DNA of 64,000 nt from Candidatus Parcubacteria bacterium (lineage in GTDB: Bacteria; Patescibacteriota; Patescibacteriia; Patescibacteriales; UBA12465), in contig AP029158.1 of NCBI GenBank assembly GCA_037076615.1, positions 133,470-197,469 of the forward strand. Reading direction: 5' to 3'. A program made the translations under genes and the position numbers. Positions 3,067-22,332 of the stretch are shown here, piece by piece; the first letter of the stretch is position 1, and every line of letters begins with the position of its first letter. The notes under the pieces are model-generated. The model was not told the origin of the DNA and ran no database searches. It saw nothing but the letters and a program-made list of their open reading frames with translations.

Positions 3067-3095
3067 TTGACAATATAGTATAAATCTGCTATAAT
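3067..3095 (+). promoter_or_regulatory. Consensus sigma70-type promoter
   Basis: TTGACA (3067-3072), 17-nt spacer, TATAAT (3090-3095), upstream of the small membrane-protein genes. Confidence 0.5.
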
Positions 3096-3722: not shown

Positions 3723-5801
3723 TTATTCCAAGTGTAAATTTTTCTCCCATTCACCTAAGCGCGCCTTTATTTGTGGATGTTTATTTAAATCAGGGTCCGA
3801 GTTTATTAGTTTCACAGCTTCGGCTCGAGCGGCTCTTAAAAAGGGAAGATTAAAAATAGTCCCTAGTTGCCAATCTTTGAAACCACTTTGGATTTGGCCA
3901 AATAGATCACCGCTGCCGCGGAGCTCCAAGTCCTTTTCGGCTAGTTTGAGGCCGTTATTAGTTTCGGTCATTATTGTTAGTCTTTCTAAGGTCTTCGGAT
4001 TTTTTATATTTTCCTGACTGGGGATTAGGAAACAATAAGAGGCATCTTTGCCGCGCCCCACTCGGCCACGGAATTGGTGTAACTGCGCCAGACCAAAGCG
4101 ATCGGCACCCTCAATAACCATCACCGTCGCATTGGGAAAATCAATGCCGACCTCAATCACGGAGGTTGAAACTAAAATATTTATTTTGCGGGTGGCAAAT
4201 CTTGCTAAAACCTCTTCTTTGCCTTTGGCTGTTAAACGTCCATGAAGTAGCCCCACCTTATATTCTGGAAAAACTTCTTCTTGAAGGCGGCGCTGTTCTG
4301 TTTTTGCCGATTTTACTTCCAGTTTGTCGGAATCTTCAACTAGGGGGCAAATGACAAAAACCTGCCGGCCCGCCTCAATCTCTTGGCGCAAGCGCACTTC
4401 CATGGCGGCTCTCTGCCCACTGGCGACTAAGAAAGTTTTTATTTCTTGTCGGCCTGCCGGCTGCTCCGCGATGATTGATAAATCTAAATCGCTGTAAATA
4501 GTTAGGGCGAGTGAGCGGGGGATAGGCGTGGCCGTCATGGAGAGAAAATGTGGGGCCCAATTTTTTTCTTGGCCTAAAATTTGATGACGCTGGTTAACGC
4601 CAAAACGATGCTGTTCGTCAACCACCGCTAAAGCTAGACGCGGAAAAGAAACGCCGGGCTGAATCAGAGCTTGGGTGCCGATAATTAAATCAGCCTCTTG
4701 CCGCAATAATTCTTTTTTATCTTTATTATTTAACTTCGGATCGACGGCAAAATTAGCCTCTTGATAACTGGCTGTTAGTAGGGCCACCTTAAATTTTTGG
4801 TGTTTAAAAAATTGGCTAAAAGTTTGGTAATGCTGGGTGGCTAAAACTTCGGTAGGGGTCATGAGCGCTCCCTGCCTGCCGGCGAGAATAACATTTAAAA
4901 AAGCCATGGCGGCGACCACCGTTTTGCCGCTACCCACATCACCTTCTAAAAGTCGAGACATGGGCCGGCCTTTACCTAAATCACCAATAATTTCCCAAGC
5001 TGATTTACGTTGATCATTGGTTAATTTAAAAGGTAGCTGAGCCACAAAATCTTGGGTCGTTTTTTCTTGAAAAGGGATGGCAGGCGCTTCTAAATGGGCC
5101 AATTCTTTTTTAATCGTTTGCGATTTTAATTGGCGTAAAAATAAATCACTAAAGGCTAAGCGTTGGCGGCTAGCACTAATTTCGGCCTCGGTGGCGGGTT
5201 GGTGGATATAACGCAGCGCTGTCGCTAAATCTAATAAATTAAGGCGCTCACGAATTTCTGCCGGTACCCAGTCGCTTAATTTTTTGGCTAAAGGCAAAAC
5301 CTGGCGAACGGCTTGGCGAATTTGCTTTTGAGATAATTTAGCGGTGCTCGGATAATGGGGGACTAAACCGCTAGTATTGATTAGTTCTGCTTGAGTGACT
5401 CTTTCGTAATCAGGCGAGACCATCTGCGGGGCGCCGTTATCGCTTTGAACGCGGCCGGCCACCGAAATTTCGTCGCCCACTTTTAAATTACGCGTTAAAA
5501 AACTTTGGTTAAACCAAATTAATTTTAGAAAACCAGTATCATCGCGTAAAAGCGCCTCAGTAATCTGGAGGCGGCGTCCACGGCTGCGGCGGCTCTGGAT
5601 TAAATCGATAGTCCCAATAACATTAGCAGTTTCGCCAATTTTTAAAGCATTAATACTGCGGCCGCTGGAAAAATTATCATAACGGAAGGGGGTATAAAAT
5701 AATAAATCCCCGGCGGTATTAAGGCCGAGTTTGGCAAATTGTTTCGCGGTGACTTCGCCCACGCGGTAAAGGGTGGGTAGTGGGCTGCTGAACTTTAACA
5801 T
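3723..5801 (-). CDS. recG: ATP-dependent DNA helicase RecG
   Basis: N-terminal wedge/OB region, helicase Walker A GDVGSGKT, DEQHRFG (VVDEQHRFGV) and motif VI QLHQFRGRVGRG. Confidence 0.9.
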   Translation of the reverse strand: MLKFSSPLPTLYRVGEVTAKQFAKLGLNTAGDLLFYTPFRYDNFSSGRSINALKIGETANVIGTIDLIQSRRSRGRRLQITEALLRDDTGFLKLIWFNQSFLTRNLKVGDEISVAGRVQSDNGAPQMVSPDYERVTQAELINTSGLVPHYPSTAKLSQKQIRQAVRQVLPLAKKLSDWVPAEIRERLNLLDLATALRYIHQPATEAEISASRQRLAFSDLFLRQLKSQTIKKELAHLEAPAIPFQEKTTQDFVAQLPFKLTNDQRKSAWEIIGDLGKGRPMSRLLEGDVGSGKTVVAAMAFLNVILAGRQGALMTPTEVLATQHYQTFSQFFKHQKFKVALLTASYQEANFAVDPKLNNKDKKELLRQEADLIIGTQALIQPGVSFPRLALAVVDEQHRFGVNQRHQILGQEKNWAPHFLSMTATPIPRSLALTIYSDLDLSIIAEQPAGRQEIKTFLVASGQRAAMEVRLRQEIEAGRQVFVICPLVEDSDKLEVKSAKTEQRRLQEEVFPEYKVGLLHGRLTAKGKEEVLARFATRKINILVSTSVIEVGIDFPNATVMVIEGADRFGLAQLHQFRGRVGRGKDASYCFLIPSQENIKNPKTLERLTIMTETNNGLKLAEKDLELRGSGDLFGQIQSGFKDWQLGTIFNLPFLRAARAEAVKLINSDPDLNKHPQIKARLGEWEKNLHLE

Positions 5802-6559: not shown

Positions 6560-6652
6560 GGAGAGATGGCCGAGCGGCTGAAGGCGGCAGGTTGCTAACT
6601 TGCTATAGGAGTTTACCTCCTATCCAGGGTTCGAATCCCTGTCTCTCCGCCA
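6560..6652 (+). tRNA. tRNA-Ser, anticodon GCU, long variable arm, CCA encoded
   Basis: GGAGAGA acceptor, anticodon stem GCAGG/CTTGC with loop TTGCTAA, long variable arm, T-arm CAGGGTTCGAATCCCTG, 3' end TCTCTCCGCCA. Confidence 0.9.
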
Positions 6653-6764: not shown

Positions 6765-8087
6765 TTAATCTTCTATCAAGGTCAACTTTTTATCTTTATA
6801 CATTATTTTTGATCTCAGATTAGCTAGTAGCTCTCTTTTTTCAGATACTGCGCCTTCTTTTAATAAGTATTTAGCATAATTTCTTATATCCATTTCTTTG
6901 TCGGTTTTCAGTTTTTCCGTAGCACCCAGTACTGATCTTTGAAAGATATTAAATCGGGCTATTTCATCCTCTAATTTTTGCCTCATTCCTAACTCGTTAA
7001 TATTTACTTTGTCTAATATTTTAAGTAATTCAGCAATAAGCTCTTCTTCTCTGATATATTTATTTTTACAATTTCTATCCCTAGCTCTTGAGCATGAATA
7101 GTAGATATATCTGGCGTGTGTACCATCTTTAAGTTGTTTATATTTTTCTTCTGCTGATATGCCTGACCCGCAATGACCACAAGTAAATAGTTTAGTGAAG
7201 GCAAATTCTCTATTTTCTCTAACAATTTTATCTCTTTTTAATTGAGCTTGAGCTTTTTCAAATAAATCTTTATTTATTATCGGCTTATGTTTTCCCTGAT
7301 ACCAGTTACCGCTACCAACTGGTCTTTCAAATACTCCGTAATAAAAAGGGTTATCTAGTATTCTATATACTCCAGCCAGTGTTAATGGTTTATTTCCTCG
7401 AGTATAGAAGTTTAATTCATGTTTAAGATAGTTATATAATTTCCGACCACTATATTTTTCATAAGCTACTTTTTCAAACATTTTCTTGATAGCTGGCGCT
7501 CTTAATGGATCAATAATAACTTGGCATTTTTTATCCATTCTTTTTTGGTTTAAATAACCTAGCGGAGCAAGTCCAACCCATAAACCCATTTCTGCTCTAG
7601 TCCTTAGCCCTCGTCTAACATTAATTCCTCGATTATCATTTTCTAACTTGGCTTGCGATCCTAAAATCATAAGCAGGAATTTCTCATTTGGATTATTAGA
7701 AAATTTCTGACCATATGTCCTAATTTCTAGCAGGGCACCACTATCCATTAAATCCACTATTTTCCCTAAATCACCAGCATTACGAGATATGCGGTCAGGA
7801 GCCCAAGTCAAAATGGCGTTAAATTTACCCTCTTTGATTTCGTCCACAATCTCATTGAAGACTGGTCTTTGACCTGTTTCTTTGGCGCTGTGCGATTCTC
7901 GCTTTAATTCGACCACATCAAGGCCTTCTCGCTCGGCCAGCTCAAGCATCTCTTTTATTTGGCTATCTATTGATAAGACTTGCCTTTCCTCGCTTTCGGT
8001 CGATTTTCTTGCATAAAGGCAGTATTTTACCTTAATTTTGGTCTCTATTTTGCCTTGAGTCCCTACGGGCATTAATGTTGTATTCAT
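6765..8087 (-). CDS. Large serine recombinase (integrase)
   Basis: N-terminal resolvase-type catalytic motif YARKSTESEERQVLSIDSQ, a recombinase domain, a zinc-ribbon CGHCGS...YYSCS...C and a C-terminal coiled-coil region. Confidence 0.85.
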   Translation of the reverse strand: MNTTLMPVGTQGKIETKIKVKYCLYARKSTESEERQVLSIDSQIKEMLELAEREGLDVVELKRESHSAKETGQRPVFNEIVDEIKEGKFNAILTWAPDRISRNAGDLGKIVDLMDSGALLEIRTYGQKFSNNPNEKFLLMILGSQAKLENDNRGINVRRGLRTRAEMGLWVGLAPLGYLNQKRMDKKCQVIIDPLRAPAIKKMFEKVAYEKYSGRKLYNYLKHELNFYTRGNKPLTLAGVYRILDNPFYYGVFERPVGSGNWYQGKHKPIINKDLFEKAQAQLKRDKIVRENREFAFTKLFTCGHCGSGISAEEKYKQLKDGTHARYIYYSCSRARDRNCKNKYIREEELIAELLKILDKVNINELGMRQKLEDEIARFNIFQRSVLGATEKLKTDKEMDIRNYAKYLLKEGAVSEKRELLANLRSKIMYKDKKLTLIED

Positions 8088-8159: not shown

Positions 8160-8213
8160 ACACATGTTAACTTGACATAAATTTTTTATTAAGCTATAAT
8201 TAACACATGTTAA
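8160..8213 (+). promoter_or_regulatory. Consensus promoter of the hsdM operon flanked by two identical 11-mers
   Basis: ACACATGTTAA at 8160-8170 and 8203-8213. TTGACA (8172-8177), 17-nt spacer, TATAAT (8195-8200). Confidence 0.55.
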
Positions 8214-8238
8214 GTTTATTATAAATTATTTATAAAAT

Positions 8239-10035
8239 ATGTCTCTAGATAAATCCCAGTTTGTTACGCCAACACAACTAGCAAAAATGCTAGGTATTAC
8301 TCGTATTGCAATTCATCAAAAAATCAAAAAAGGTGAAATAAAAGCGGAAAATATTGGTGACCCTTCGAAGCCAACTTATGTTATACCTAAGTCTTCATTG
8401 TCTAAAGAGATTCAAGATCGCATACAGGTAGAACAAAAAAAGGCAACTGAGAGTATAGTTGGTAAGGACGTACAGCACCATGATTTAAATTTTGAAAAAG
8501 AGCTTTGGGCAGCAGCAGATAAACTTCGTGGAAATATTGATGTTTCTGAATACAAGAATATTGTTCTTGGTCTTTTATTTTTGAAATATATATCTGATGC
8601 TTTTTATACTCGCCGCAAAGAACTTGAAAGTCTTACTCGTGATAAAAATAATGAAAATTTTTATGTAGAAGATGATAAGGCTCGAGCACAAATCCTTGAA
8701 ACTAAAGATTTTTATAAAAGTGCTGGTGTATTTTATGTTCCTGAAAAATCAAGATGGGAATACTTGCAAACAAAAACCATGCAATCTGATATTGGTCAGG
8801 TGCTGGATAAGGCAATGGATTATATTGAAGAAGATAATCGAGTCGAACTTGAAGGCGTTCTTCCAAAAATTTATACACGTACAACCCTTGATTATTCTGT
8901 TATCGGTGAGCTTGTAAATATCTTTTCTCGTATTTCATTTGATCATAATTTTGATCGTGAAAAAGATATTCTTGGTCGTATCTACGAATACTTCCTTGGT
9001 CAGTTTGCGTCATCTGAAGGAAAACGTGGGGGCGAATTTTTTACTCCTCGATCGATTGTTAAATTACTCGTAGAAATTCTTGAGCCTTATGAAAATGCTC
9101 GCGTACTAGATCCAGCCTGCGGTAGCGGGGGGATGTTTGTGGCTATGGGTGAATATCTTCGTAACCATGGACAAGATTCATCAAAACTTGCTATCAACGG
9201 TCAAGAAAGTAATCAGACTACGCTTCGCCTCGCAAAGATGAATCTCGCTATTCGTGGACTTTCAGGAAAGATTGAATTAGGAAACACTTATTATCAAGAC
9301 AAATTTCCACATCTGCAGGCAGACTTCGTGATTGCAAATCCACCTTTTAACGGAGAATGGGAGCCGTCAAAACTTTCGGATAATGATCCGCGCATAACAC
9401 TCGGCACTCCACCAAGCGGAAACGCAAACTTTATGTGGGTGCAACATTTTGCACACCATCTTGCGCCAAATGGTTTGGCAGGATTTGTTATGCCAAATGG
9501 AGCACTTGCCGTATCAGGAAAAGAAGGAGAGCTTCGCAAAAAGCTTATTGAGGAAGATTTGGTTGAAGTGATTATTTCTTGCCCATCAAAGCTTTTCTAT
9601 AACGTATCACTTCCTGTTTCTCTTTGGTTTTTAGCAAAGAATAAAAAAGGTGATCGTTTTAGAAATCGTTCGGGCGAAACATTATTTATCGATGCTAGAG
9701 ATACATTTGAACAAATTTCTCGTAAGCAGGTTGTGTTTAACCCAGAACATATTGAGAAAATTTCAAATACTGTTCGTGCGTGGCGTGGAGAAAAAGATGC
9801 AGGCACATACGAAGATGTATCCGGATTCTGCAAGTCTGCATCTCTAGAAGAAATAAAGAAAAATGGATACGTTCTTACTCCTGGTCGTTATGTTGGCTTG
9901 GCTGATGTAGAAGACGATGGAATTTCTTTTGAAGAAAAAATGGAAAAACTTTCATCTGAATTGCGAGTGGCATTTGCAAAAGGTCGAGATTTGGAAAAAG
10001 AGATTGAGAAAAATCTTAAGGAACTCGGATTTTAA
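8239..10035 (+). CDS. hsdM: Type I restriction-modification methyltransferase subunit M with an N-terminal excisionase-type HTH extension
   Basis: HsdM_N-like LWAAADKLRGN..LGLLFLKYISD, motif I LDPACGSGGMF and motif IV ANPPFN. The first ~85 aa contain TPTQLAKMLGITRIAIHQKIKKGEI. Confidence 0.9.
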   Translation: MSLDKSQFVTPTQLAKMLGITRIAIHQKIKKGEIKAENIGDPSKPTYVIPKSSLSKEIQDRIQVEQKKATESIVGKDVQHHDLNFEKELWAAADKLRGNIDVSEYKNIVLGLLFLKYISDAFYTRRKELESLTRDKNNENFYVEDDKARAQILETKDFYKSAGVFYVPEKSRWEYLQTKTMQSDIGQVLDKAMDYIEEDNRVELEGVLPKIYTRTTLDYSVIGELVNIFSRISFDHNFDREKDILGRIYEYFLGQFASSEGKRGGEFFTPRSIVKLLVEILEPYENARVLDPACGSGGMFVAMGEYLRNHGQDSSKLAINGQESNQTTLRLAKMNLAIRGLSGKIELGNTYYQDKFPHLQADFVIANPPFNGEWEPSKLSDNDPRITLGTPPSGNANFMWVQHFAHHLAPNGLAGFVMPNGALAVSGKEGELRKKLIEEDLVEVIISCPSKLFYNVSLPVSLWFLAKNKKGDRFRNRSGETLFIDARDTFEQISRKQVVFNPEHIEKISNTVRAWRGEKDAGTYEDVSGFCKSASLEEIKKNGYVLTPGRYVGLADVEDDGISFEEKMEKLSSELRVAFAKGRDLEKEIEKNLKELGF

Positions 10036-10038
10036 TAT

Positions 10039-11151
10039 ATGAGTAAATTATTAGAACAAATAAATAGTGAACTTGAAACAAAGGAGACCGTGCCCTTGGC
10101 TAATCTTATGTCTCAAATTACCTCCAAGGTAAATAAAATACAGAAGTCTGACTACCTTAAGTTTGGCCTAGTGCCCATTTATGATCAGGGAGATAATGAT
10201 GTGTCGGGTTATTCTAATGATGTAAGTAATGCATATAATGGAAAGCTACCCGTTGTAATCTTTGGAGATCATACACTTAGATTGAAGAGAATCTCGTCGC
10301 CCTTCTTTTTAGGAGCAGACGGTAATCAACTTATTGAGCCTCTAGATGAGAATATTTTAGATAGGAATTATTTTTACTACCTACTTCTTTCTAAAAAACC
10401 AAGAAGTTATGGTTATGAAAGACATTTCAAATATTTAAAAGAAGTTGAGGTAAAAGTACCCAATCTTCCAACGCAAAAGAAAATAGCTGAAATTTTGAGT
10501 GCATATGATGCAAAAATTGAGAATAATAATCTAATTATCAAGAAACTTGAAGCAACCGCTCAAACATTGTTTGACGAGTGGTTTGTGAATTTTAAATTCC
10601 CTGGGTATGAGAAGGTTAAATTTGTTGATAGTGAAATGGGAGAAATTCCTGATGGATGGAATATAAAAAATGTGCTCGATGTAATCGAAAGAATTTCCCC
10701 TGGTAAGAAATACGATAATAAATCCGCATCACCTAGCGGCAGAGTTCCAATTCTTGATCAAGGAGCTTCTGGCTTTATTGGTTATCATGATGACGAACCT
10801 GGTGTTATTGCAAGCATTAATAACCCCGTTGTTATTTTCACTAACCATACTTGTTATTATCGTATTCTTACTGAGCCGTTTTCATGTATTCAAAATGTGC
10901 TTCCTTACGTTGGTAAAAACGGATATGACACATTCTTTGTGTATTTTCTCACAAAAGAAAAGATAAAAATGTCTGAGTACAAAGGTCACTGGCCAGAGTT
11001 TGAACAACAAGTTTTTGTTATGCCCATTCCAGAAATTGCTAATCAATTCTCGAAGATGGCAAAAGTATTTATTGAAAAAATTGTTTCTTGCGAAAAAGAA
11101 AATGTTTCCTTGAAATCTCAGCGGGATCTATTATTAGCTAAATTAATTTAA
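10039..11151 (+). CDS. hsdS: Type I R-M specificity subunit S
   Basis: Two variable halves are separated by a conserved helical spacer LPTQKKIAEILSAYDAKIENNNLIIKKLEATAQTLFDEWFV. There is a C-terminal helix SLKSQRDLLLAKLI. The gene starts 3 nt after hsdM. Confidence 0.8.
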   Translation: MSKLLEQINSELETKETVPLANLMSQITSKVNKIQKSDYLKFGLVPIYDQGDNDVSGYSNDVSNAYNGKLPVVIFGDHTLRLKRISSPFFLGADGNQLIEPLDENILDRNYFYYLLLSKKPRSYGYERHFKYLKEVEVKVPNLPTQKKIAEILSAYDAKIENNNLIIKKLEATAQTLFDEWFVNFKFPGYEKVKFVDSEMGEIPDGWNIKNVLDVIERISPGKKYDNKSASPSGRVPILDQGASGFIGYHDDEPGVIASINNPVVIFTNHTCYYRILTEPFSCIQNVLPYVGKNGYDTFFVYFLTKEKIKMSEYKGHWPEFEQQVFVMPIPEIANQFSKMAKVFIEKIVSCEKENVSLKSQRDLLLAKLI

Positions 11152-11154
11152 TAT

Positions 11155-12003
11155 ATGGATCCATTGATAACAAAAGAATTAGTAGAGCTTGGCTCACAGA
11201 CAGCATCAAAACCAGTCGCTAGTTTTTCAGAATTAATAGCTTTAAAGTTCTTTGGTAAATCAATAGCAAAACTTAAAGCAGAAGCGGAAGTTGAAGGAGA
11301 CAAAGTATTGTCTAGATGGGAGGAGGTTGAGAAACCTCTCTGGCTTCAAGCAGAAGCCGTAAAGATGAATAGACAATATGATAATTTTGGAAATACACTC
11401 AAGAAAGCATCAAAATACATTACAGAGGAAAATACCATCTCAAATGAAAATGATTTATTTTGGGGGTTATTAGAGCATTCAAAGGAAATTACCAATGAAG
11501 ATGTTCAAGATCTAATTGCAAAGATTATAGCTGGTGAGTACAATGCACCTGAAACATACTCAATGAGTACTCTTCAGATCTTGAAATCTTTAGGTAAAAA
11601 AGATTTAGAAAAATTTACATTTTTTGCAAGTTTTTACTTGCCAGAGCATGGTTTTTTCAAAGACTTTTTTAATATGCAGGAATCCTCTCTATTGGTACGC
11701 ACTAAACTAGGGATTAATTATGCAGACTTTTTAGAATTACAAAATCTCGGCCTGATTCAAAGTGGAGAATATACAATCTCAGTTTCGGTTAAAAAAGATG
11801 CTATATTTTCCTTGGATTATTATGGGGATAGGTTTTTATTCAAAGCTACTAAAGACTTCGATAAATGGAATTTCCCAGAGTGTTACGCATTAACTAAGGC
11901 AGGAAAAGAAATCCTTCAGCATTTAAATATAAGTAAATCTAGCGATTTTAAAGAGTGGTTAGTTGAAGATTTAAAGACTAAAGGTTTTGAACCACAAAAT
12001 TAG
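11155..12003 (+). CDS. Unknown protein embedded between hsdS and hsdR (possibly DUF2806/Abi-alpha-like; from memory only)
   Basis: 282-aa ORF with 3-nt and 5-nt junctions to its neighbours. The segment DLIAKIIAGEYNAPETYSMSTLQILKSLGKKDLEKFTFF resembles DUF2806-type proteins as I recall them. Confidence 0.45.
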   Translation: MDPLITKELVELGSQTASKPVASFSELIALKFFGKSIAKLKAEAEVEGDKVLSRWEEVEKPLWLQAEAVKMNRQYDNFGNTLKKASKYITEENTISNENDLFWGLLEHSKEITNEDVQDLIAKIIAGEYNAPETYSMSTLQILKSLGKKDLEKFTFFASFYLPEHGFFKDFFNMQESSLLVRTKLGINYADFLELQNLGLIQSGEYTISVSVKKDAIFSLDYYGDRFLFKATKDFDKWNFPECYALTKAGKEILQHLNISKSSDFKEWLVEDLKTKGFEPQN

Positions 12004-12008
12004 ATAAT

Positions 12009-15000
12009 ATGAACACATTAAACGAAAACAACCTAACAGAACAATCACTTATCGAATGGTTACAAGGTCAGGGTTATGAGTATGTGTATGGCCCAGCCAT
12101 GGCACCGAATCAACCTAACGCCGAGCGTGAGGATTTTCGAAGTGTTGTACTCAAGAATAGACTTATTACTTCTGTACGTCGTTTTAATCCACAACTTCCA
12201 GTTCAACAAGCAGAGCAAGTTGTAGATGATATTGCCTTATATCACAACGCTGATGCAATGCTTGGCAACAAAGAAATGTTTACTCTCATTACTGAAGGAG
12301 TGAAAAAGACATGGCAAGAAGACGGTATAGAAAAAACAGAAGTTGTCAAACTTATTGATTTTGAAAATGCAGAAGCAAATGATTTCTTAATAACGAATCA
12401 ATTTACCGTTCAGGGCGTAGAGAATGTTTGTCGTCTTGATGGAGTAGTTTTTGTGAACGGTATTCCGCTTTCAGTATTAGAGCTCAAGAGTCCTGTGCGT
12501 GAAAAAGCAACAATCGGCCAAGCTTATCGAGATATGGAATACTACAAAAAAGAGATTCCAAAGATGTTTTTGTATAACCAAGTGCTTTGTCTTAGCGATC
12601 TTACCGAAGCGAAACACGGAACAATTTCTTCTTCTTGGGAATGGTATGGAACATGGAAAGGAGTCAACTCAGAAGGAGATGCTCCGAGTGGTGCGACTGA
12701 ACTCGAGGTGCTTGCAAAAGGTCTTTTTAATAAAAAACGGTTTCTTGATCTCATTTACAACTTCATAGTTTTTGAAGCTGATGGTGATGGTGATGCGGTT
12801 ACGTACACAAAGAAGATGGCTTTATACCATCAATACTATGGTGTAAATAAAACTATTGATAGCACTGTTCGTTCGGTGAGTGGTGAACAAGATCGAAAAA
12901 TCGGCGTTTTTTGGCACACACAGGGATCTGGAAAGTCACTCTCTATGGTATTTTATGTGAACAAAACAAAACGCATTCCAGAATTAAAAAGTCCTGCATA
13001 TGTATTTTTAACTGATCGTGAAGATTTGGACGATCAACTCTTCAAGACATTTAGTCGTACAGGATACGGCACTCTTGCCAAGCGGGCATCGAGTATTAAG
13101 GATCTGAAGGGCAAACTTACTCATCTTGGAAGTGAACTTATTTTCACCACTATTCAAAAATTTCAAGATGACCCTGATGCAAATAATGTTTTAAGTGACA
13201 GAGAAAACATCATTGTTCTTACTGACGAGGCGCATCGAACTCAGTACAGCATGCTTGCTGGTAATGCGAGACAAGCTTTGCCTAATGCGAGTTTTTTAGG
13301 TGTGACAGGAACTCCGCTTTCAAATCATGATAAAAACACAATGCGTGTTTTCGGTGACATCATAAGTTCATACAAAATTGGGCAAGCTGTGAAAGATAAA
13401 GCAACCGTTCCTATTTACTATGAAGGTCGCTTAATCCCACTTCATTTAGCTGATAAATTTATAGACAGTAAACTCGATGAAATTCTTGGGGAAATTGTGG
13501 TTGATGAAAAAGTAAAAGCCCGCAGGGAATGGGCAGTTCTTGAAGAAGTTGTGGGCGCACCAAGTCGTATTGAACAAATCGCCAAAGATGTCGTTTCTCA
13601 CTTTAATAATCGACCGATTGAAGGAAAAGCAATGGTGGTTACAATGAGCCGATCTATTGCAGTTGCGATGTATAACGCAATAAAGAATATTGAAGGAGCG
13701 CCTGAGTGCGCCGTCATTATTTCTGGAATGGATGATTTCCCAGAGCAGATTCAAGGTGAGCATGATGTGAAAAAACTCGAGAAGAGATTTAAGAAATCAA
13801 ACGACGCACTTCGACTGGTTATCGTTTGTGATATGTGGCTCACTGGTTTTGACGTGCCTAATATGCATACAATGTATCTTGATAAGCCACTCAAGAATCA
13901 TGGGCTTATGCAGGCGATTGCTCGCGTGAATCGTGTTTATAAAGATAAGCCAGGTGGATTGATTGTTGACTATATTGGTATTGCTGAGAATTTAAAAAAA
14001 GCTCTTGCTATATATGACACAGATGTTCAAAAAGAAGCAATGATTCCGCTTGATGACGTTATTGCGGAAATGAACATCCTCCACAGAGAGGTGTCTTTAT
14101 ATTTTTCAAATATAGATTTTTCGGGATGGAGAAATAAAAAAGGTATTGAATTAGTTGAATTATTTCAATCATCAATGAATGAGGTTATTTCAAAAGATGG
14201 CATCCTGTCTGATGACAGGAAAATGGTATATATAGGGCTTGTGTCTAAACTTTCAAGTCTCCACGCTCTTGTAATGCCAGGTGAGGAAGCGATGAAGATT
14301 GCAACTGATATTCAGTTCTTTCAATCTATTCGTGAGGCGATAAATAAACAAACTGTAATACCTCATATTATCTTTCCTGAAGCTACAGAGAGCGCTATTC
14401 GCAGTCTTGTTCAAGATTCTGTACAAGCAGAAGGCGTTATTGATTTGTTTACTAAAGAAGGCGAAGAAGGAAAAAGTATTTCTATTTTTGACGAGCGCTT
14501 TTCGGAAGAGATTAAGAAGGTTAAATATCAAAACCTTGCTATCGACACTATTCGTAAGATGCTAGATAAAGAAATTAGCGTGCGTTCTCGAACGAATAAG
14601 GCTCGTTATGAAACGATGCTTACACTACTCACGGAACTTATTGAGAAATACGAAAATAATGTTATTAACTCTTCAGAAATTATAAAACATTTGCTTGAAA
14701 TCGCAGATGAAATAAAAAAGCTAGATGCAGAAAGCGAAGAACTGGGATTGTCTGAAGAAGAGATTGTTTTTTATGACACGCTTTCATCTGACCCAGACCT
14801 TAAAAAGGCTGGATTAGACATTAAGGATTTTGTGCAAGAACTCACCAAAAGAATTCGCCGAGATATTTCGATTGATTGGATTAATAACGAAACTATTAAA
14901 GCAAGAATCAGGCAAAACGTCAGACTCCTTTTAATTCAGAAAGGAATTGTTGAAGAGAAGCAAACGGAAAAAATAGTTAATATAATATTTCTAGAAACAG

Positions 15001-15032
15001 CTAGAGTTTTTAGAGAGTATGTACCATCCTAA
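12009..15032 (+). CDS. hsdR: Type I restriction endonuclease subunit R
   Basis: Walker A HTQGSGKS, DEAH box LTDEAHRTQ, motif VI QAIARVNR and a long helical C-terminal domain. Confidence 0.9.
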   Translation: MNTLNENNLTEQSLIEWLQGQGYEYVYGPAMAPNQPNAEREDFRSVVLKNRLITSVRRFNPQLPVQQAEQVVDDIALYHNADAMLGNKEMFTLITEGVKKTWQEDGIEKTEVVKLIDFENAEANDFLITNQFTVQGVENVCRLDGVVFVNGIPLSVLELKSPVREKATIGQAYRDMEYYKKEIPKMFLYNQVLCLSDLTEAKHGTISSSWEWYGTWKGVNSEGDAPSGATELEVLAKGLFNKKRFLDLIYNFIVFEADGDGDAVTYTKKMALYHQYYGVNKTIDSTVRSVSGEQDRKIGVFWHTQGSGKSLSMVFYVNKTKRIPELKSPAYVFLTDREDLDDQLFKTFSRTGYGTLAKRASSIKDLKGKLTHLGSELIFTTIQKFQDDPDANNVLSDRENIIVLTDEAHRTQYSMLAGNARQALPNASFLGVTGTPLSNHDKNTMRVFGDIISSYKIGQAVKDKATVPIYYEGRLIPLHLADKFIDSKLDEILGEIVVDEKVKARREWAVLEEVVGAPSRIEQIAKDVVSHFNNRPIEGKAMVVTMSRSIAVAMYNAIKNIEGAPECAVIISGMDDFPEQIQGEHDVKKLEKRFKKSNDALRLVIVCDMWLTGFDVPNMHTMYLDKPLKNHGLMQAIARVNRVYKDKPGGLIVDYIGIAENLKKALAIYDTDVQKEAMIPLDDVIAEMNILHREVSLYFSNIDFSGWRNKKGIELVELFQSSMNEVISKDGILSDDRKMVYIGLVSKLSSLHALVMPGEEAMKIATDIQFFQSIREAINKQTVIPHIIFPEATESAIRSLVQDSVQAEGVIDLFTKEGEEGKSISIFDERFSEEIKKVKYQNLAIDTIRKMLDKEISVRSRTNKARYETMLTLLTELIEKYENNVINSSEIIKHLLEIADEIKKLDAESEELGLSEEEIVFYDTLSSDPDLKKAGLDIKDFVQELTKRIRRDISIDWINNETIKARIRQNVRLLLIQKGIVEEKQTEKIVNIIFLETARVFREYVPS

Positions 15033-15035
15033 AAT

Positions 15036-15977
15036 ATGATTAAAAAAATACTTTCAATTGATGGTGGTGGGATAAAAGGGGTTTTTCCTCTGTCTTTTTT
15101 AAGCACAATTGAAGAGGTGACTGGCAAAAAAATATCAGATTATTTCGATCTTATTGTTGGTACTTCAACTGGTGGTATTATTGCACTTGGCATTGGCGCT
15201 GGCTTTTCCGCAAAGGAACTATTAGAATTTTATGAAAAACTAGGCCCAGATGTGTTTGTTGGCAATAGGTATATTAAATTTTTAAGAAGCATGGGGGTAT
15301 CGAAATATAGCAATAAAGCATTAAAGAATTCCTTATTTGAAAAGTTTGGAGATAAAAAACTTGGTGAAAGCAAGAATAGACTTGTAATTCCTAGTTTAAA
15401 TCTTGAAAATGGAGAGGTTCATGTATATAAAACCGCTCATCATGAAAGATTCCAAAGAGATTATAAAGAAAATATTGTTGACATAGCCCTGGCGACATCA
15501 GCGGCTCCGACATATTTTCCGACTCATACTTCAGTTTCAGGCACCCCCTTGGTTGACGGTGGGTTATGGGCAAACAATCCAGCTGGCCTTGCTGTTGTCG
15601 AGGCGATAGGCATTCTTGAATGGCCTCGTGATCAATTAAAAGTGCTAAGTATAGGATGCACAGATGAGCCATTAAATATTAAGAGGGCACGCAATCACCC
15701 AGCAGGTTTATTTTATTGGGGAACAAGAATAGTTAAGTTGTTTATGTCGGCTCAATCCTCCGCTTCTTACGGAACCGCTCAATTGCTCGCAGGCCATTCC
15801 AATATTACAAGGATTAATCCTGTTGTCTCAAGTGGAAAATTTGGATTAGACGTTGTTAAAGAAATTAAATCACTTAAGGGGCTGGGAGAAACTGAGGCAC
15901 GCAAAGCTCTGCCAAATATTGAATTATTTTTTACTGACAAAGTTGACCCTTTTATTCCTAAACATCAATTACTATGA
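15036..15977 (+). CDS. Patatin-like phospholipase (CapV-like CBASS effector candidate)
   Basis: Oxyanion motif DGGGIKG, nucleophile elbow GTSTGG and catalytic Asp VDGGLWANNP. Confidence 0.85.
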   Translation: MIKKILSIDGGGIKGVFPLSFLSTIEEVTGKKISDYFDLIVGTSTGGIIALGIGAGFSAKELLEFYEKLGPDVFVGNRYIKFLRSMGVSKYSNKALKNSLFEKFGDKKLGESKNRLVIPSLNLENGEVHVYKTAHHERFQRDYKENIVDIALATSAAPTYFPTHTSVSGTPLVDGGLWANNPAGLAVVEAIGILEWPRDQLKVLSIGCTDEPLNIKRARNHPAGLFYWGTRIVKLFMSAQSSASYGTAQLLAGHSNITRINPVVSSGKFGLDVVKEIKSLKGLGETEARKALPNIELFFTDKVDPFIPKHQLL

Positions 15978-17362
15978 AATTGGAATCATCATTTAATGAC
16001 TTTTTAGAAAATACCGTTAATCTTAATGGGACGCGATATCAAATTGCAAAATCTGGGATCGAAACCATGAAAAGTATTTTGCAAAATGATGAAATTTTTG
16101 GAGATAAATTTATCTCTATTAAACCGCAGGGTTCTTTTAGACAAGAAACTATTATTAAGCCAGTTCGTTGTGGTACGGATTTTGATGTAGACATTCTTTT
16201 TGAGGTGAAGGCGACAGCTGGATGGGAGTCCAAAGATTATTTAAATAAACTTTCTTCCCAATTTAAAAAACTAGATAGATATAAAGATAAAGTTGACACA
16301 AGAGGAAAATCACGCTGTGTTACTATAGATTATGAGAACGATTTCCATATCGATATTGTTCCCGCTATAAATATTAGCAATCAGTCACTTGTGATGAATA
16401 AAACTGAGAATAAATTTGAGTTAACAGATGGAGATGGTTATGCAGAATGGTTTTATCGTCAGGATAGTATTACTGGTAAAAAATATCTTAAGAAAATAGT
16501 TAGACTTTTAAAATACATTCGTGATTTTAAGCAAGAGTTTGATATAAAATCTGTTGCATTAACAACTTTTGTCGGCAATCAAGTACTGTCTAGCGATAAC
16601 CTTGTTGATCAATATCCTGACCTATCCACTTCTTTTGTTCTTTTGCTTAGTCGTTTAGATTTATATTTACAATCTAATGCGGTAATGCCAATTATTGTAA
16701 ATCCAGTTCTTCCATCTGAAAATTTTAATCGTCATTTAAAGCAAGATGACTATCTAAAATTTAGAGACGCAATACACAAATATTCTCAAATAGCTCTTGA
16801 CGCATATAATGATGTTGACGAGCATAGAAGTTTATCTAAGTGGCAAAAGATCTTTGGCGATTCGTTTACCGTTAAAGAAAATAGAAATTTATCAGTTTCA
16901 ATAAATGGATTACATTTGGCAAATTTTAGTCACAAACAAGAATTGGCAGATTTAAATATACCAATTATTGATACTTTTGCATCTGTGGAAATTAGAGCAG
17001 GCCTATATTGGGGAAAGGGTGACTATAAAATAGTAAATAGAAGATTTAAAGGGTCCTTTTCTACAAAAAACGAATTGCCCAGATTCCATTGGCTAAAATA
17101 TACTGCAATTACAAATTATAACAAACCCTATGATGTGTATTGGCAGGTTGTTAACACTGGAGCCAGTGCTCAAAGCCAAGGCGCTAAAGGTTTGAGGGGT
17201 GAAATTAAATTGGGTTCCAATGAACAATGGGAAAGAAGTTTATATACAGGTGTTCATTGGGTAGAGTGTTTTATTGTTGATATAGCTACAAACGCATGTG
17301 TGTGTCGTAGCGGACCATTTTATGTAGGCTTTCAGGAAAGAGTTGGTGATGTGTCCGATTAA
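15974..17362 (+). CDS. CD-NTase/SMODS-type nucleotidyltransferase with a C-terminal AGS-C-like sensor domain
   Basis: Pol-beta NTase signature QGSFRQET..(14 aa)..DFDVDILF plus a third acidic motif FHIDIVPA. ATGA overlap with the patatin gene. The C-terminal ~150 aa are non-NTase; the AGS-C call is from memory. Confidence 0.7.
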   Translation: MKLESSFNDFLENTVNLNGTRYQIAKSGIETMKSILQNDEIFGDKFISIKPQGSFRQETIIKPVRCGTDFDVDILFEVKATAGWESKDYLNKLSSQFKKLDRYKDKVDTRGKSRCVTIDYENDFHIDIVPAINISNQSLVMNKTENKFELTDGDGYAEWFYRQDSITGKKYLKKIVRLLKYIRDFKQEFDIKSVALTTFVGNQVLSSDNLVDQYPDLSTSFVLLLSRLDLYLQSNAVMPIIVNPVLPSENFNRHLKQDDYLKFRDAIHKYSQIALDAYNDVDEHRSLSKWQKIFGDSFTVKENRNLSVSINGLHLANFSHKQELADLNIPIIDTFASVEIRAGLYWGKGDYKIVNRRFKGSFSTKNELPRFHWLKYTAITNYNKPYDVYWQVVNTGASAQSQGAKGLRGEIKLGSNEQWERSLYTGVHWVECFIVDIATNACVCRSGPFYVGFQERVGDVSD

Positions 17363-17370
17363 TTAGTAAT

Positions 17371-17631
17371 ATGAGAAAATTTTATATAGACAACAGGATA
17401 GATTGGCTTAGTACCATATTTTATATTATAGGTATGCCATTTAGATTAATCGATTGGTTAATAAAAAAGATGTTCAAGTATTTAAAAATTATAATTTCAG
17501 ATATTTTCCACGGTGTATATAAAAAACTTATAGCTATTATTGTGTTTGTTATTGTAATTTTTATTATGCTTTATATTTCTAACCTTACTCATGTTCAGGA
17601 GTTAAAAAGTTTACCTTTAATTGTTAAGTAA
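17371..17631 (+). CDS. Small two-helix membrane protein (86 aa)
   Basis: Hydrophobic segments WLSTIFYIIGMPF and LIAIIVFVIVIFIMLYI. Starts 8 nt after the NTase gene. Confidence 0.45.
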   Translation: MRKFYIDNRIDWLSTIFYIIGMPFRLIDWLIKKMFKYLKIIISDIFHGVYKKLIAIIVFVIVIFIMLYISNLTHVQELKSLPLIVK

Positions 17632-17675
17632 ATAAAGGTCGAATAAAAAATACAAAAATTATTAACTAAAAATAT

Positions 17676-17888
17676 ATGGATAAGCCAAAGTATATTCGCA
17701 ATGCTGGCAAACCATGGACTCCTCAGGAAGAGAAAAAATTGTTTCAACTTGCTAAAGTCAATACTCCAACCAGAGTTATGGGTCTTGAGCTTGGAAGACC
17801 AGTAGGAGGAATTCAAAGCAAGGCTAGTCAATTAGGAATTAGTTTGAAGCCAACTAACCAATCCCCCTATAATCGCAAAACCAAATAG
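17676..17888 (+). CDS. Small SANT/Myb-like HTH protein (70 aa)
   Basis: KPWTPQEEKKLFQLAKVNTPTRVMGLELGRPVGGIQSKASQLGI resembles a single Myb-type repeat. Confidence 0.4.
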   Translation: MDKPKYIRNAGKPWTPQEEKKLFQLAKVNTPTRVMGLELGRPVGGIQSKASQLGISLKPTNQSPYNRKTK

Positions 17889-17906
17889 TAAATTTAATAG
17901 AAATTT

Positions 17907-17935
17907 TAAAATACGCCCAAATGGGCGTATTTTTG
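17907..17935 (+). terminator. Intrinsic terminator ending the long R-M/CBASS gene string
   Basis: ATACGCCC-AAAT-GGGCGTAT (17911-17930) followed by TTTTT. Confidence 0.65.
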
Positions 17936-17999
17936 TAATTGTAGACAAACTGTAGGTAACTTTTCTTTACTTTTAGGCCTGTTTAAGCTATATTTTAAG

Positions 18000-18147
18000 T
18001 GCGAAACCACAATTGAATATTCCGAAAGAAGCATGAAAAATGCTGTCATTTGTATACAGGAACGGGCACTCCGACCCTATACAAGTGGCAGTCTTTCGGG
18101 ACACCAATTGTGGTTTCGCAACCAAGGTCGGGTGTCCGTTTTTGTTT
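18000..18147 (+). promoter_or_regulatory. Riboswitch-like structured 5' leader with a terminator-type expression platform
   Basis: Perfect 16-bp long-range helix 18000-18015 / 18105-18120 encloses nested helices 18022-18029/18092-18099, 18030-18034/18040-18044 and 18050-18056/18078-18084. Alternative pairings end at a T-run (18139-18143). Confidence 0.5.
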
Positions 18148-18175
18148 AGTGAAATTAAATATTAATATAAAAAAT

Positions 18176-18844
18176 ATGGATAATATTATTGGATTTATAC
18201 TTTTTATTTCTTTCCTATCCTTTTTTGTCGGGCTAATAAAGCCCAGCATTTTTAGCAGAGTTTTTAAAAATAAAAAGGAGATAAATCGCAAATTTATACT
18301 AAAAGTTTTTGGCTCTAGCACTTTCGCCCTATTATTAATACTAGGAATGGTATCTGAAAACAAGTCTGATAATATTGATCCAATAGTTAATAATTCGGCT
18401 GAGGTGTTTGTTGAAGAAAAGGCTGAAAGTTTTGTAGAAGAAATTCAAGAAGATGAGGCACTGTCTCAGGATGAGCTTGTTAGTGCCAATCAAGCAGAGC
18501 CTGTAACGACTAAAATCGTGACTGAAAACAAAGAGGAGGTCGCCCATGTCACCAATCAGCCCGCCAAAGAGATAAATAATGCAAAAACAGATAACGCTCC
18601 TGGTACAGAAATAATTAAGACAGACCTAACTCCACCCACAGAAGAAAGTGAGCCAGTTCAGCCAACTAAAGCTGTAGTTAGCGGGAAGTTTTATACCTCA
18701 TCTCATGGTAGTGCCAAGTACTATTATCCTGCAAGTTGTTCTGACTGGCAAAATTTAAGTCAAAGCTATTTACGAGAGTTTGATTCTTTAGAATCTTTAT
18801 TAAAAAAATATCCGTCTAGGACCTTAAGTCCTACGTGTAATTAA
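18176..18844 (+). CDS. Membrane-anchored protein with an acidic linker and a small Cys-containing C-terminal domain
   Basis: Start moved to MDNIIGF because the ORF-track N-terminus reads through the structured leader. Two N-terminal TM helices. C-terminus is GKFYTSSHGSAKYYYPASCSDW...SPTC. Confidence 0.5.
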   Translation: MDNIIGFILFISFLSFFVGLIKPSIFSRVFKNKKEINRKFILKVFGSSTFALLLILGMVSENKSDNIDPIVNNSAEVFVEEKAESFVEEIQEDEALSQDELVSANQAEPVTTKIVTENKEEVAHVTNQPAKEINNAKTDNAPGTEIIKTDLTPPTEESEPVQPTKAVVSGKFYTSSHGSAKYYYPASCSDWQNLSQSYLREFDSLESLLKKYPSRTLSPTCN

Positions 18845-18853
18845 TAAAAATAT

Positions 18854-19057
18854 ATGAAAAAGAAAACACCCGCCGCTTTATTAGCACTTTTTCTAGGAGG
18901 ATTTGGAATTCATAAGTTCTACCTAGGCAAAACCACTCCAGGAGTTTTTTACCTTTTATTTTGCTGGACATTTATACCGGCGATTTTGGCATTCATCGAT
19001 TTTATAATAATATTATCGACCAACAAAGAAGCATTTAATAAAAAGTATAACGTTTAG
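18854..19057 (+). CDS. TM2 domain protein (67 aa)
   Basis: LALFLGGFGIHKFYLGKTTPGVFYLLFCWTFIP matches the TM2-domain pattern. Confidence 0.6.
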   Translation: MKKKTPAALLALFLGGFGIHKFYLGKTTPGVFYLLFCWTFIPAILAFIDFIIILSTNKEAFNKKYNV

Positions 19058-21292: not shown

Positions 21293-22057
21293 ATGAAGAT
21301 AATTAAAAAGATTATCGCAAAGAATAGAATAAAGAGAGAGATGAATGACGTTCTGGCTATAAAGCAGCTGGTGTTAGCTCATCTGCATGAATTAATAAAG
21401 CGTCGCAAAGAGATTGATGAAAATCTTTTTGAAGTGACAGCCTTTTTATTAGATGAAATAGGAGATGCTCTTGCCGCTATTATAACTTTAAAAAAGGATC
21501 ATTTGAAAAGTAGTATCATGATTTCTAGATATATATTAGAGGACTGTGTTAATTTGCAATATATCTATAAAGAAGATTCAGAAAAAAGAGCTTTAAATTA
21601 CAGAGCTTTTTCGGCAAAGGAATTATTAAATAGAGCAGAGATGTATGAGGGGGATGATGACAGAATTAAAAAAGAAATTCCAAGAATTAAAGAAAGGGCT
21701 GAAAAATATTCTCCTTCTGGAAAAAATTCTAATCATTGGGATGGTTTGTCTACTAAAAAAATAATGTCCGATTTAAATTTAGAAGGTATATATCAAATTT
21801 GGTATGTTAGAATGTCTTCTTACATCCACCCACAGTATAGGGGAAGCAAAATAAGATCTAGTGATAAGGGTGAGTATATAGAATTTTTGAAGAAAATGGT
21901 GTTTAAAGATTTAAATCTTCCAATACTCGAATCTTTAAGAGCGGTAAATAAGAAATTTGATTTGCTTGAAGGCGCAGTTATCATTAGTAATTATCCAAAA
22001 GAAAAAGCTACCTTAGTTTTTAGTATCAATGAGCGCAGAGAGCCAAAAAGGCCATGA
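21293..22057 (+). CDS. Hypothetical protein, possible HEPN-type (AbiV/DUF5677-like) abortive-infection protein
   Basis: All-helical 254-aa ORF. Candidate Rx4-6H motif RMSSYIH, and SRYILEDCVNLQYIY resembles DUF5677-type proteins (from memory). Confidence 0.35.
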   Translation: MKIIKKIIAKNRIKREMNDVLAIKQLVLAHLHELIKRRKEIDENLFEVTAFLLDEIGDALAAIITLKKDHLKSSIMISRYILEDCVNLQYIYKEDSEKRALNYRAFSAKELLNRAEMYEGDDDRIKKEIPRIKERAEKYSPSGKNSNHWDGLSTKKIMSDLNLEGIYQIWYVRMSSYIHPQYRGSKIRSSDKGEYIEFLKKMVFKDLNLPILESLRAVNKKFDLLEGAVIISNYPKEKATLVFSINERREPKRP

Positions 22058-22073
22058 AAAAAATTCATTAAAT

Positions 22074-22101
22074 TTGACTTTTCATTAATTTATGCTATAA
22101 T
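22074..22101 (+). promoter_or_regulatory. Near-consensus promoter
   Basis: TTGACT (22074-22079), 16-nt spacer, TATAAT (22096-22101). Confidence 0.55.
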
Positions 22102-22107
22102 ATAATT

Positions 22108-22300: not shown

Positions 22301-22332
22301 GTTTGTTGAGCTAGAAAGAGAGGTGATAAAAT

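Follow-up and report, generated by a model that had tools for sequence, protein, structure and literature searches.

Layout of the locus

The stretch of 64,000 nucleotides analysed here, referred to as the window, comes from contig AP029158.1 of a Candidatus Parcubacteria bacterium, a member of the candidate phyla radiation (CPR). Between positions 8160 and 17940 it carries an array of eight genes on one strand, in which the hsdM, hsdS and hsdR genes of a predicted type I restriction-modification (R-M) system are combined with a DUF2806 gene, with the two genes of a putative cyclic oligonucleotide-based anti-phage signalling system (CBASS), a patatin-like phospholipase and a cGAS/DncV-like nucleotidyltransferase (CD-NTase), and with two small genes, p86 and p70. 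The array is situated in a low-GC island between recG (3723-5801) and tyrS (25171-26358). Its genes and the signals around them are the following.

8160..8213, + strand: operon promoter; -35 TTGACA at 8172-8177, 17-nt spacer, -10 TATAAT at 8195-8200
8239-10035, + strand: hsdM; Pfam N6_Mtase 346 bits and HsdM_N 90 bits, PADLOC MTase_I 2.9e-153
10039-11151, + strand: hsdS; Pfam Methylase_S, PADLOC Specificity_I 1.2e-68 over residues 26-370 of 370
11155-12003, + strand: DUF2806 protein (282 aa); Pfam DUF2806 70 bits against a cutoff of 24.5, profile positions 11-220 of 221
12009-15032, + strand: hsdR (1007 aa); Pfam HSDR_N, SWI2_SNF2/ResIII, T1R_D3-like and T1RH-like_C, PADLOC REase_I 3e-242
15036-15977, + strand: patatin-like phospholipase, CapV-type CBASS effector; NCBIfam CBASS_lipase equivalog 281.7 bits against a cutoff of 200, PADLOC 1.2e-105
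15974-17362, + strand: CD-NTase, SMODS with C-terminal AGS_C sensor domain; Pfam SMODS 94.8 (cutoff 26.5), AGS_C 66.2 and DncV-like_NTFase 39.4 bits, PADLOC cyclase 4.1e-134
17371-17631, + strand: p86, small hydrophobic protein (86 aa); 9 homologous clusters among 1.8 billion representatives
17676-17888, + strand: p70, three-helix Myb/helix-turn-helix (HTH)-like protein (70 aa), last gene; phrog_323 'transcriptional regulator' 2.6e-9, AlphaFold2 (AF2) model
17908..17937, + strand: intrinsic terminator; 11-bp hairpin and U-run, -15.7 kcal/mol, z = -4.1

For comparison, a CD-NTase profile scan of genome and metagenome collections gave 126 non-redundant loci, to which contigs with homologues of DUF2806, p86, p70 and the closest CD-NTase were added; these are cited by their L numbers.

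The eight open reading frames (ORFs) span 8239-17888 and the junctions between them measure, in order, 3, 3, 5, 3, -4 (ATGA), 8 and 44 nt, identical to the genes and spacings described in the first-pass annotation. The single promoter and single terminator that it had placed around the genes were both recovered. The promoter at 8172-8200 matches the sigma-70 consensus TTGACA-17-TATAAT in 12 of 12 positions, and two such perfect sites are found in the window where shuffled sequences predict 0.03. The second perfect site (3067-3095) is located just 3' of an ORF at 1832-3037. The terminator hairpin was not equalled in folding by any of 200 shuffles. It had been overlooked by a simple terminator scan because maximal stem extension consumes part of the T-run. 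A terminator-like hairpin with a T-run was also read by eye after p70 in L161.

Two copies of ACACATGTTAA (8160-8170 and 8203-8213) flank the promoter and look like operators. The promoter and both copies are kept upstream of hsdM in L004, L061, L062, L064 and L065 (alignment A2) and also in L078. The repeat takes the form CACATGT(T/C)AA in the six relatives, with one copy abutting the -35 and the other just after the -10. In these relatives the second copy overlaps the hsdM ATG, about 7 nt past the -10, and the hsd mRNA is therefore probably leaderless there; the window has some 30 extra nt before the ATG.

Inside the cluster, promoter-like matches number 49 compared with 46 +/- 5.5 in shuffles, and terminator-like matches 7 compared with 8.5 +/- 2.8. 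Because these are the frequencies of shuffled DNA, the scan neither reveals nor excludes internal signals. No junction-proximal motif conserved among the window, L004 and L078 was found. All eight starts have the context (T/A)AAT-ATG without a Shine-Dalgarno sequence, and the preceding stop is usually 3-8 nt upstream, a spacing that fits coupling by termination-reinitiation. The layout suggests that the eight genes are co-transcribed.

An independent Logan assembly contains the same eight-gene array with proteins that are 100% identical, and a JGI contig repeats the hsdR-patatin-NTase-p86 junctions; DRR520374 and JGI 3300060823 are the samples concerned. The array is therefore not an assembly chimera.

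Genes of the type I R-M system

The identities given to hsdM, hsdS and hsdR in the first-pass annotation agree with Pfam, PADLOC and NCBIfam, with HsdM scoring below its NCBIfam cutoff (TIGR00497, 164 vs 243 bits) and HsdR above (TIGR00348, 588 bits vs 285). The motifs DPACGSGGMF and NPPF are present in the translation of HsdM, and GSGKS, DEAH and D...ELK in that of HsdR. The Pfam Methylase_S match of HsdS is significant for the first domain only, and the PADLOC alignment spans the full length. Judged by these features, hsdM, hsdS and hsdR have the sequence characteristics of a type I R-M system and encode, in that order, its methyltransferase, specificity and restriction/translocase subunits.

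HsdM has an N-terminal extension of about 80 amino acids, which is conserved in six family members (alignment A4) and lies outside the type I methyltransferase models. A sub-cutoff Pfam match to HTH_17 at residues 9-55 makes the extension a plausible candidate for a built-in autoregulator of the hsd promoter.

None of the operon proteins matched PrrC/RloC or any other ABC-ATPase defence model in PADLOC and Pfam. A guardian of the PrrC type, with an ABC-ATPase and an anticodon nuclease, was considered for the operon and rejected on that ground.

The CBASS gene pair

The patatin-like protein passes the NCBIfam equivalog 'CBASS cGAMP-activated phospholipase', matches solved CapV/CBASS phospholipase structures at 1e-41 and contains the motifs DGGGIKG, GTSTG and DGG. 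The CD-NTase gene overlaps it by 4 nt (ATGA). The active-site residues G53, S54, D71, D73 and D127 are invariant among 36 homologues (alignment A1); similarity to solved CD-NTases is distant (E about 5e-9) and confined to the N-terminal region. The profile hidden Markov models thus agree with the earlier designation of the two proteins as a phospholipase and a CD-NTase: CBASS_lipase is over its cutoff, SMODS and AGS_C are both found, and PADLOC concurs.

The eight operon proteins include no Cap2/Cap3 (E1/E2, JAB) and no HORMA/TRIP13 domains according to Pfam and PADLOC, and the pair is therefore a minimal, two-gene type I CBASS. Some relatives do carry ancillary genes; L028, for example, has ThiF/E2 and JAB. 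The patatin-CD-NTase pairing is conserved across dozens of loci. With its active site, an adjacent co-oriented effector and no ancillary genes, the pair has the sequence features expected of type I CBASS. No relative of the CD-NTase was found in IMG/VR.

The CapV-DncV system of Vibrio cholerae is similar in its order of effector and then cyclase with overlapping stop and start codons, in a patatin that passes the CBASS_lipase cutoff and matches CapV structures, in the GS/DxD/D cyclase site and in the lack of Cap2/Cap3 or HORMA/TRIP13. It differs in that the CD-NTase of the window has an AGS_C C-terminal domain and is distant from solved CD-NTases, and in that the window pair has no promoter or regulator of its own.

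The DUF2806 gene

The gene between hsdS and hsdR had been described as embedded and of unknown type. The embedded ORF is real, but its product is a member of the DUF2806 family. The 257 homologues are mostly annotated as DUF2806 alone, there is no match in PADLOC, and a PDB sequence search was empty. The AF2 model is well defined (pLDDT 86, pTM 0.80) and matched no fold in the PDB (best E 0.29).

The sole characterised DUF2806 protein found is Belisama, a single-gene anti-phage cassette of the Vibrio cholerae superintegron that causes culture collapse at high multiplicity of infection and is toxic on overexpression (bioRxiv 10.1101/2024.07.02.601686). The window gene is a candidate for a single-gene abortive-infection protein of the Belisama type; the abortive-infection phenotype was reported for the V. 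cholerae protein alone (bioRxiv 10.1101/2024.07.02.601686). Both are lone DUF2806 proteins serving as mobile defence cargo. The similarity is at the level of the Pfam family only, and the window gene sits in an hsd operon whereas Belisama sits in an integron. The Abi-alpha homology claimed for Belisama (bioRxiv 10.1101/2024.07.02.601686) was not reproduced against one Abi_alpha protein: a profile-versus-sequence comparison with the protein of L078 gave a probability of 0.1%, and DUF2806 was rejected as an Abi-alpha member.

The tail genes p86 and p70

The hydrophobic peptide called '2-TM' (two transmembrane segments) in the first-pass annotation belongs to a real though rare family. In every readable context p86 is found at the 3' end of a type I operon: 9 nt after hsdR in L153, after hsdR-YgjP in L156/L157, and after the CBASS cassette in L161. 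In L156/L157 a p70 homologue (71% identical) comes after p86.

The p70 gene is very widespread in the CPR, with at least 1660 clusters at 70-86% identity. The earlier description as 'Myb-like' is consistent with its AF2 model (pLDDT 81): this shows a domain of three helices, and its top fold matches, none with a significant E-value, are to HTH domains of the Myb/SANT/Tc3 type. The gene also occurs in the order S24 repressor-p70-cargo, the cargo being Shedu or SAVED with SMODS (L070, L072, L010, L022, L027, L097, L109), and in L068 it ends a CD-NTase-153 aa-p70 array beside a recombinase. Shedu (SduA) was seen as cargo at 6211-7599 of L070, after S24-p70, and at 2281-3351 of L161, between hsdM and hsdS.

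A role for p70 as a CBASS-specific regulator was rejected since it also flanks Shedu and R-M-only operons. Because it occurs beside Shedu, SAVED with SMODS and R-M-only operons, p70 appears to be a backbone gene bordering cargo slots and not a CBASS component. Likewise, p86 and p70 were rejected as ancestral parts of the CBASS cassette: both are missing in L004 and L078, and homology to L004 stops at the CD-NTase stop codon. The earlier assignment of the two genes to the CBASS side therefore does not hold; on these elements they are a conserved part of the tail of type I operons, although in L161 they are joined to CBASS in one patatin-CD-NTase-p86-p70 block, so that the tail genes can travel with the CBASS lineage. 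Taken together, p86 and p70 form a recurrent 3' tail of two unrelated families of type I R-M operons on serine-recombinase elements, which is without precedent in the searchable literature. Possible roles include those of accessory factors, of a pair of regulators and of an addiction module.

A conserved scaffold with exchangeable cargo

The window's recombinase and promoter, together with its hsdM and hsdR (82-89% identity), recur in a family of CPR elements whose members differ in the genes between and behind the hsd genes. The slot between hsdM and hsdS is empty in the window and holds Hypoth_Ymh in L004 and L061, DUF2130 in L064 and Bro-N with DUF2130 in L065. Between hsdS and hsdR are found DUF2806 (window, L061-L065), DUF4145 (L078), a 256-aa ORF (L153) or nothing (L004). 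After hsdR there is patatin with CD-NTase (window, L004/L077, L078), an unknown ORF with GmrSD (L061/L062), a 223-aa unknown (L064), p86 with a Ser/Thr kinase (L153) or nothing (L065).

Two of these relatives place the ends of the CBASS cassette. In a nucleotide comparison with L064, homology continues to the patatin ATG at 15036 and resumes at 19553 in the ParB-methyltransferase gene. Compared with L153, hsdR is 89% identical to position 15025 and there is no further match until p86 (17370-17635, 77%). Both breakpoints fall at gene boundaries, and the 2.3-kb cassette has therefore been inserted precisely between hsdR and p86.

The closest non-identical relative is found in L161, where the CD-NTase is 84% and the patatin 90% identical, and the whole region 15031-17873 (patatin-CD-NTase-p86-p70) is 81.6% identical in nucleotides. 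There the block comes after an AT-rich spacer of 70 nt, and the type I operon in front of it is a different one, with HsdM and HsdR only 30-31% identical and with YgjP after hsdR.

In the window DUF2806 is thus embedded on the same strand between hsdS and hsdR, and the CBASS cassette stands between hsdR and p86-p70; L029, L126 and L054 are the only loci in which core hsd genes enclose CBASS on both sides. The comparisons point to a conserved scaffold, hsdM-hsdS-hsdR with a p86-p70 tail, that bears swappable cargo in its slots.

Recurrence of the linkage between type I R-M and CBASS

The arrangement recurs elsewhere, a condition that the first-pass annotation had attached to its reading. The order hsdR-patatin-CD-NTase is found in L004/L077 and L078, with junctions of 4 nt in L004 and L078, and in L161 CBASS follows hsdR-YgjP. 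In three loci outside the CPR, CBASS stands between hsdS and hsdR: L029, a metagenome-assembled genome (MAG) of Pseudomonadota with the order hsdM-hsdS-3 ORFs-patatin-CD-NTase-Abi_2-hsdR-YgjP; L126, a metagenome contig related to L029; and L054, an Anaerolineales MAG with the order hsdM-hsdS-ORF-HNH/SAVED-CD-NTase-hsdR-YgjP.

In the neighbour-joining (NJ) tree the three CBASS lineages in the post-hsdR slot of the window's hsd family are not monophyletic. The window and L004 fall together with L003/L074, which are stand-alone and linked to S24, and L078 falls with the S24-linked L007. Hsd-linked CD-NTases occupy at least four separate places in the tree, so that at least four independent captures of CBASS by type I operons are counted.

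The linkage is nevertheless found in a minority of relatives, with hsd-like genes within 7 kb in 9 of the 77 loci that have at least 4.5 kb of upstream flank. A plasmid collection yielded 22 distant relatives; three that were inspected, from cultured bacteria, are stand-alone two-gene CBASS with no hsd gene nearby.

Probable control by S24 repressors and by the hsd promoter

A gene for an S24 LexA/CI-type HTH-peptidase adjoins CBASS in 35 of the 91 loci with enough flank, among them L003, L006-L010, L012, L014, L015, L018, L022, L023, L026-L028, L030, L039 and more than 20 of L073-L152. The association covers several phyla. In L007-L009 and L084 the S24 gene reads in the same direction as the cassette, and its stop codon abuts the patatin start. 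It is divergent in L003 and L074, where a promoter TTGAC(A/T)-17-TA(T/C)A(C/A)T was read by eye, unscored, about 50 nt upstream of patatin; the same sequence was read in the same manner upstream of patatin in L026. Such a neighbour suggests SOS-type control, by which CBASS would be inducible by damage or infection.

None of the nine hsd-linked loci has an S24 neighbour, compared with 35 of the remaining 82 (hypergeometric p about 0.01, calculated by hand and uncorrected for phylogeny). The window conforms to this pattern. No S24 or HTH repressor gene stands beside its cassette, and its only S24 gene (43552-44163, - strand) is 26 kb away. The observation that the pair lacks its own regulatory region is thereby borne out: unlike the stand-alone relatives it has neither a promoter region nor an S24 repressor. 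Since the cassette has neither, expression is attributed to the hsd promoter, which probably drives CBASS by read-through in place of the S24 or own-promoter control of the relatives. Repressor-controlled CBASS was rejected for the window, there being no adjacent transcription-factor gene; homologues of the HTH-like p70 occur without CBASS too.

Transcriptionally regulated CBASS reportedly includes a form with an HTH and metallopeptidase pair, CapH/CapP, and one with a WYL protein, CapW. The relatives of the window cassette resemble these in adjoining a dedicated repressor, but their regulator is an S24 LexA/CI-type HTH-peptidase, and the window cassette has none. No literature combining CBASS with an S24/LexA repressor was found in the searchable library, and the association, together with the apparent regulatory swap, is without precedent in that literature.

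Interpretation and alternatives

The operon is probably a modular, multilayer anti-phage operon, made of a type I R-M scaffold with DUF2806 and CBASS cargo and carried on an integrative island. Both cassettes have been inserted into the scaffold, at distances of 3-8 nt from the flanking genes. One sigma-70-type promoter would give a single polycistronic mRNA, with autoregulation through the flanking operator-like repeats as a plausible feature, and translation would proceed from gene to gene by termination-reinitiation at TAA-N(1-5)-ATG junctions without a Shine-Dalgarno sequence. HsdM2S would methylate self DNA and HsdR2M2S would cut unmodified incoming DNA. Phages escaping restriction would then meet abortive-infection layers. 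In one of these the CD-NTase would sense infection and make a cyclic oligonucleotide, by which the phospholipase is activated and the membrane destroyed; DUF2806 would act independently. The components are predicted to be active and to act in layers, with no physical coupling of R-M and CBASS.

Several observations weigh against this interpretation. The CD-NTase scores under the NCBIfam curated cutoffs for CBASS cyclases. Co-transcription is deduced from gene spacing and from a lack of signals that can be recognised, although consensus scans carry no information in DNA this rich in AT, and the promoter rules applied are assumed for CPR bacteria. A promoter-like site matching at 9 of 12 positions (15011-15040) overlaps the patatin start, and a weak terminator-like site (15077-15091) lies within patatin. 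Finally, the repeated capture of CBASS, including three lineages in the post-hsdR slot, could mean selection for a functional partnership and not that the slot is permissive.

Such a partnership is the substance of the first alternative, in which CBASS acts as a guardian of the type I enzyme and has a functional tie to it like that of PrrC to EcoprrI. The R-M complex would keep the AGS_C CD-NTase inactive, or the CD-NTase would sense the state of the complex; the trigger would be a phage anti-restriction protein that disables restriction or else the products of restriction. This alternative is considered unlikely. The independent joinings of this CBASS clade to type I operons, at least four and in two positions, speak for the guardian model, as do the presence of one lineage (84% identical CD-NTase) behind two unrelated type I operons and the mutual exclusion of hsd and S24 linkage, with the phylogenetic reservation made above; PrrC and PARIS are precedents for guardians of R-M. 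However, the relatives closest to the cassette that are not in type I operons (L003/L074, about 70% identical) are stand-alone loci beside S24 with a promoter of their own, the three inspected plasmid-borne relatives have no hsd genes nearby, and linkage is confined to the minority of loci counted above. In sister elements that slot is taken by GmrSD, a kinase or unknown genes, and no sequence feature is particular to the hsd-linked copies of the cassette. The functional link between restriction and CBASS suggested in the first-pass annotation is accordingly not supported: the slot is filled with unrelated cargo in sister elements, and L003/L074 stand alone beside S24.

The second alternative, that the abutting genes of a defence island are expressed separately, with CBASS and p86/p70 transcribed from a promoter hidden in the 3' end of hsdR, is held to be quite improbable. 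A TATAAT was seen by eye near 14985 in the AT-rich 3' end of hsdR, but it lacks an acceptable -35 at 16-18 nt and is not conserved in L004 or L078. The site at 15011-15040 would begin transcription within the patatin ORF, and promoter-like matches in general occur at shuffle frequency. The AT-rich spacer before the four-gene block of L161 could hold a promoter, and the Abi_alpha gene after CBASS in L078 is preceded by a 230-nt gap; the untranslated region of about 50-60 nt of the stand-alone relatives is missing in the window.

An artefact or decay, with the array a chimera of the assembly or made up of inactive remnants, is very improbable. The genome was assembled from a metagenome, and HsdM and CD-NTase fall below their respective NCBIfam cutoffs, but the array is identical in independent assemblies, every ORF is complete and keeps its motifs (NPPF, DEAH, GxSxG/DGG, GS...DxD...D), and diverged relatives retain the same junctions.

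A further proposal is speculative and has little chance of being correct. Type I operons on integrative elements of the CPR would be dedicated docking platforms with a conserved tail of p86 (small membrane protein) and p70 (Myb-like DNA binder), ahead of which abortive-infection cassettes insert. A docked AGS_C CBASS would be functionally wired to restriction, having lost S24 (SOS-type) control because the R-M complex or p86/p70 activates or licenses it. If this were true, the system would be a cyclic-nucleotide analogue of the PrrC/EcoprrI guardian pair.

Relation to known embedded defence systems

The first-pass annotation did not know the arrangement as a described kind of system. The nesting of defence genes in type I R-M operons has in fact been described: the main text of Payne et al. 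2024 (bioRxiv 10.1101/2024.01.29.577857) reports defence genes nested in type I R-M, BREX, DISARM and Hma operons, 96.7% of them in the same orientation, with cargo ranging from PrrC and GmrSD-like enzymes to many unknowns. TgvAB is embedded in the type I cluster of Vibrio cholerae VPI-2 (PMC11411939), and PrrC in EcoprrI is a worked example of embedded cargo (PMC12707154).

The window operon resembles the cases of Payne et al. 2024 in having accessory defence genes of the same orientation, with tiny gaps, in an hsdMSR operon, in cargo that varies between homologous operons, and in the logic of a backup or complementary layer. It differs in that one cargo is a complete two-gene CBASS, in that this cassette lies after hsdR and before p86/p70 and not between hsdM, hsdS and hsdR, and in that the host is a CPR bacterium. 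It also differs from PrrC/EcoprrI, there being no sign of a PrrC-like dependence of the cassette on the R-M enzyme. No description of CBASS as embedded hsd cargo was found among the titles listed, and the main text of Payne et al. 2024, tables of embedded systems aside, never mentions CBASS. Since all components are members of families already known, and so is the way in which they are associated, the operon is an instance of the 'embedded defence' type of cargo swapping and no new immune mechanism.

Surroundings of the operon

The operon is treated here as part of an integrative island of about 18 kb, which extends from a tRNA-Ser gene and a serine recombinase gene to a ParB-methyltransferase gene. 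The features at its left edge are the following.

6560..6652, + strand: tRNA-Ser(GCT); ARAGORN, Rfam tRNA 54 bits
6765..8087, - strand: large serine recombinase (440 aa), divergent from the operon; Pfam Resolvase, Recombinase and Zn_ribbon_recom

The tRNA gene is about 110 nt from the stop codon of the recombinase and is the probable integration target, and the recombinase is, by its domains, the mobility gene of the island. Homologous recombinases have the same position in L064, L065 and L068 and stand beside the operon in L004 and L156. Of flanking att repeats, only short direct repeats at chance level were seen. The island also contains a structured non-coding element, a 264-aa ORF, a TM2 protein, a TerS-like HTH protein, a ParB-N6/N4 methyltransferase, a DUF5677 protein and an HD protein. 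A prophage origin was rejected in spite of the TerS-like HTH protein and the ParB-methyltransferase, as there are no phage structural genes on the island and no relative of the CD-NTase in IMG/VR. More possible defence cargo is found at 21293-23855, comprising DUF5677 (21293-22057), an HD-domain phosphohydrolase (22826-23407) and two unannotated ORFs.

The non-coding element, about 150 nt long (18000-18150), lies right after the operon terminator and has a folding energy of -66 kcal/mol (z = -8.75 vs shuffles). Its outer stem of 15 bp, GCGAAACCACAATTG/CAATTGTGGTTTCGC, surrounds the conserved segment CGGGCAC(U/A)CCGACC, which could instead pair with a downstream GGUCGGGUGUCCG and U-run in a terminator-like structure. 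A homologue in L156 (about 6940-7090), located between the serine recombinase and GmrSD, has z = -6.35 and partly compensatory changes in the stem. The element has no Rfam match, and Rfam over 5-26 kb gave two tRNAs and nothing else. Its possible functions are those of a riboswitch or attenuator, of a small RNA or of a site for recombination.

The start codons of three small genes, p70, the 18177 ORF and that of the TM2 protein, are each overlapped by a copy of an AT-rich motif of 25 nt (TATTAA.TAAAAATATATGGATAA-like), at 17660-17684, 18160-18184 and 18838-18862. The motif may provide a common context for translation initiation or a promoter.

Significance

The locus is a clear example of how defence operons are assembled from parts. 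The same R-M scaffold has been seen with at least eight different cargoes. One CBASS lineage is found behind two unrelated R-M operons, and the cassette alternates between control by an S24 repressor and read-through from hsd. The S24 association could extend DNA-damage-inducible CBASS beyond CapH/CapP. Two small uncharacterised proteins, p86 and p70, are now linked to the 3' ends of type I operons. An ultra-small CPR genome, with a contig of about 0.7 Mb, devotes about 10 kb to one stacked defence operon, and the region 8160-17940 is a compact unit of 9.8 kb for studying layered immunity by R-M and abortive infection.

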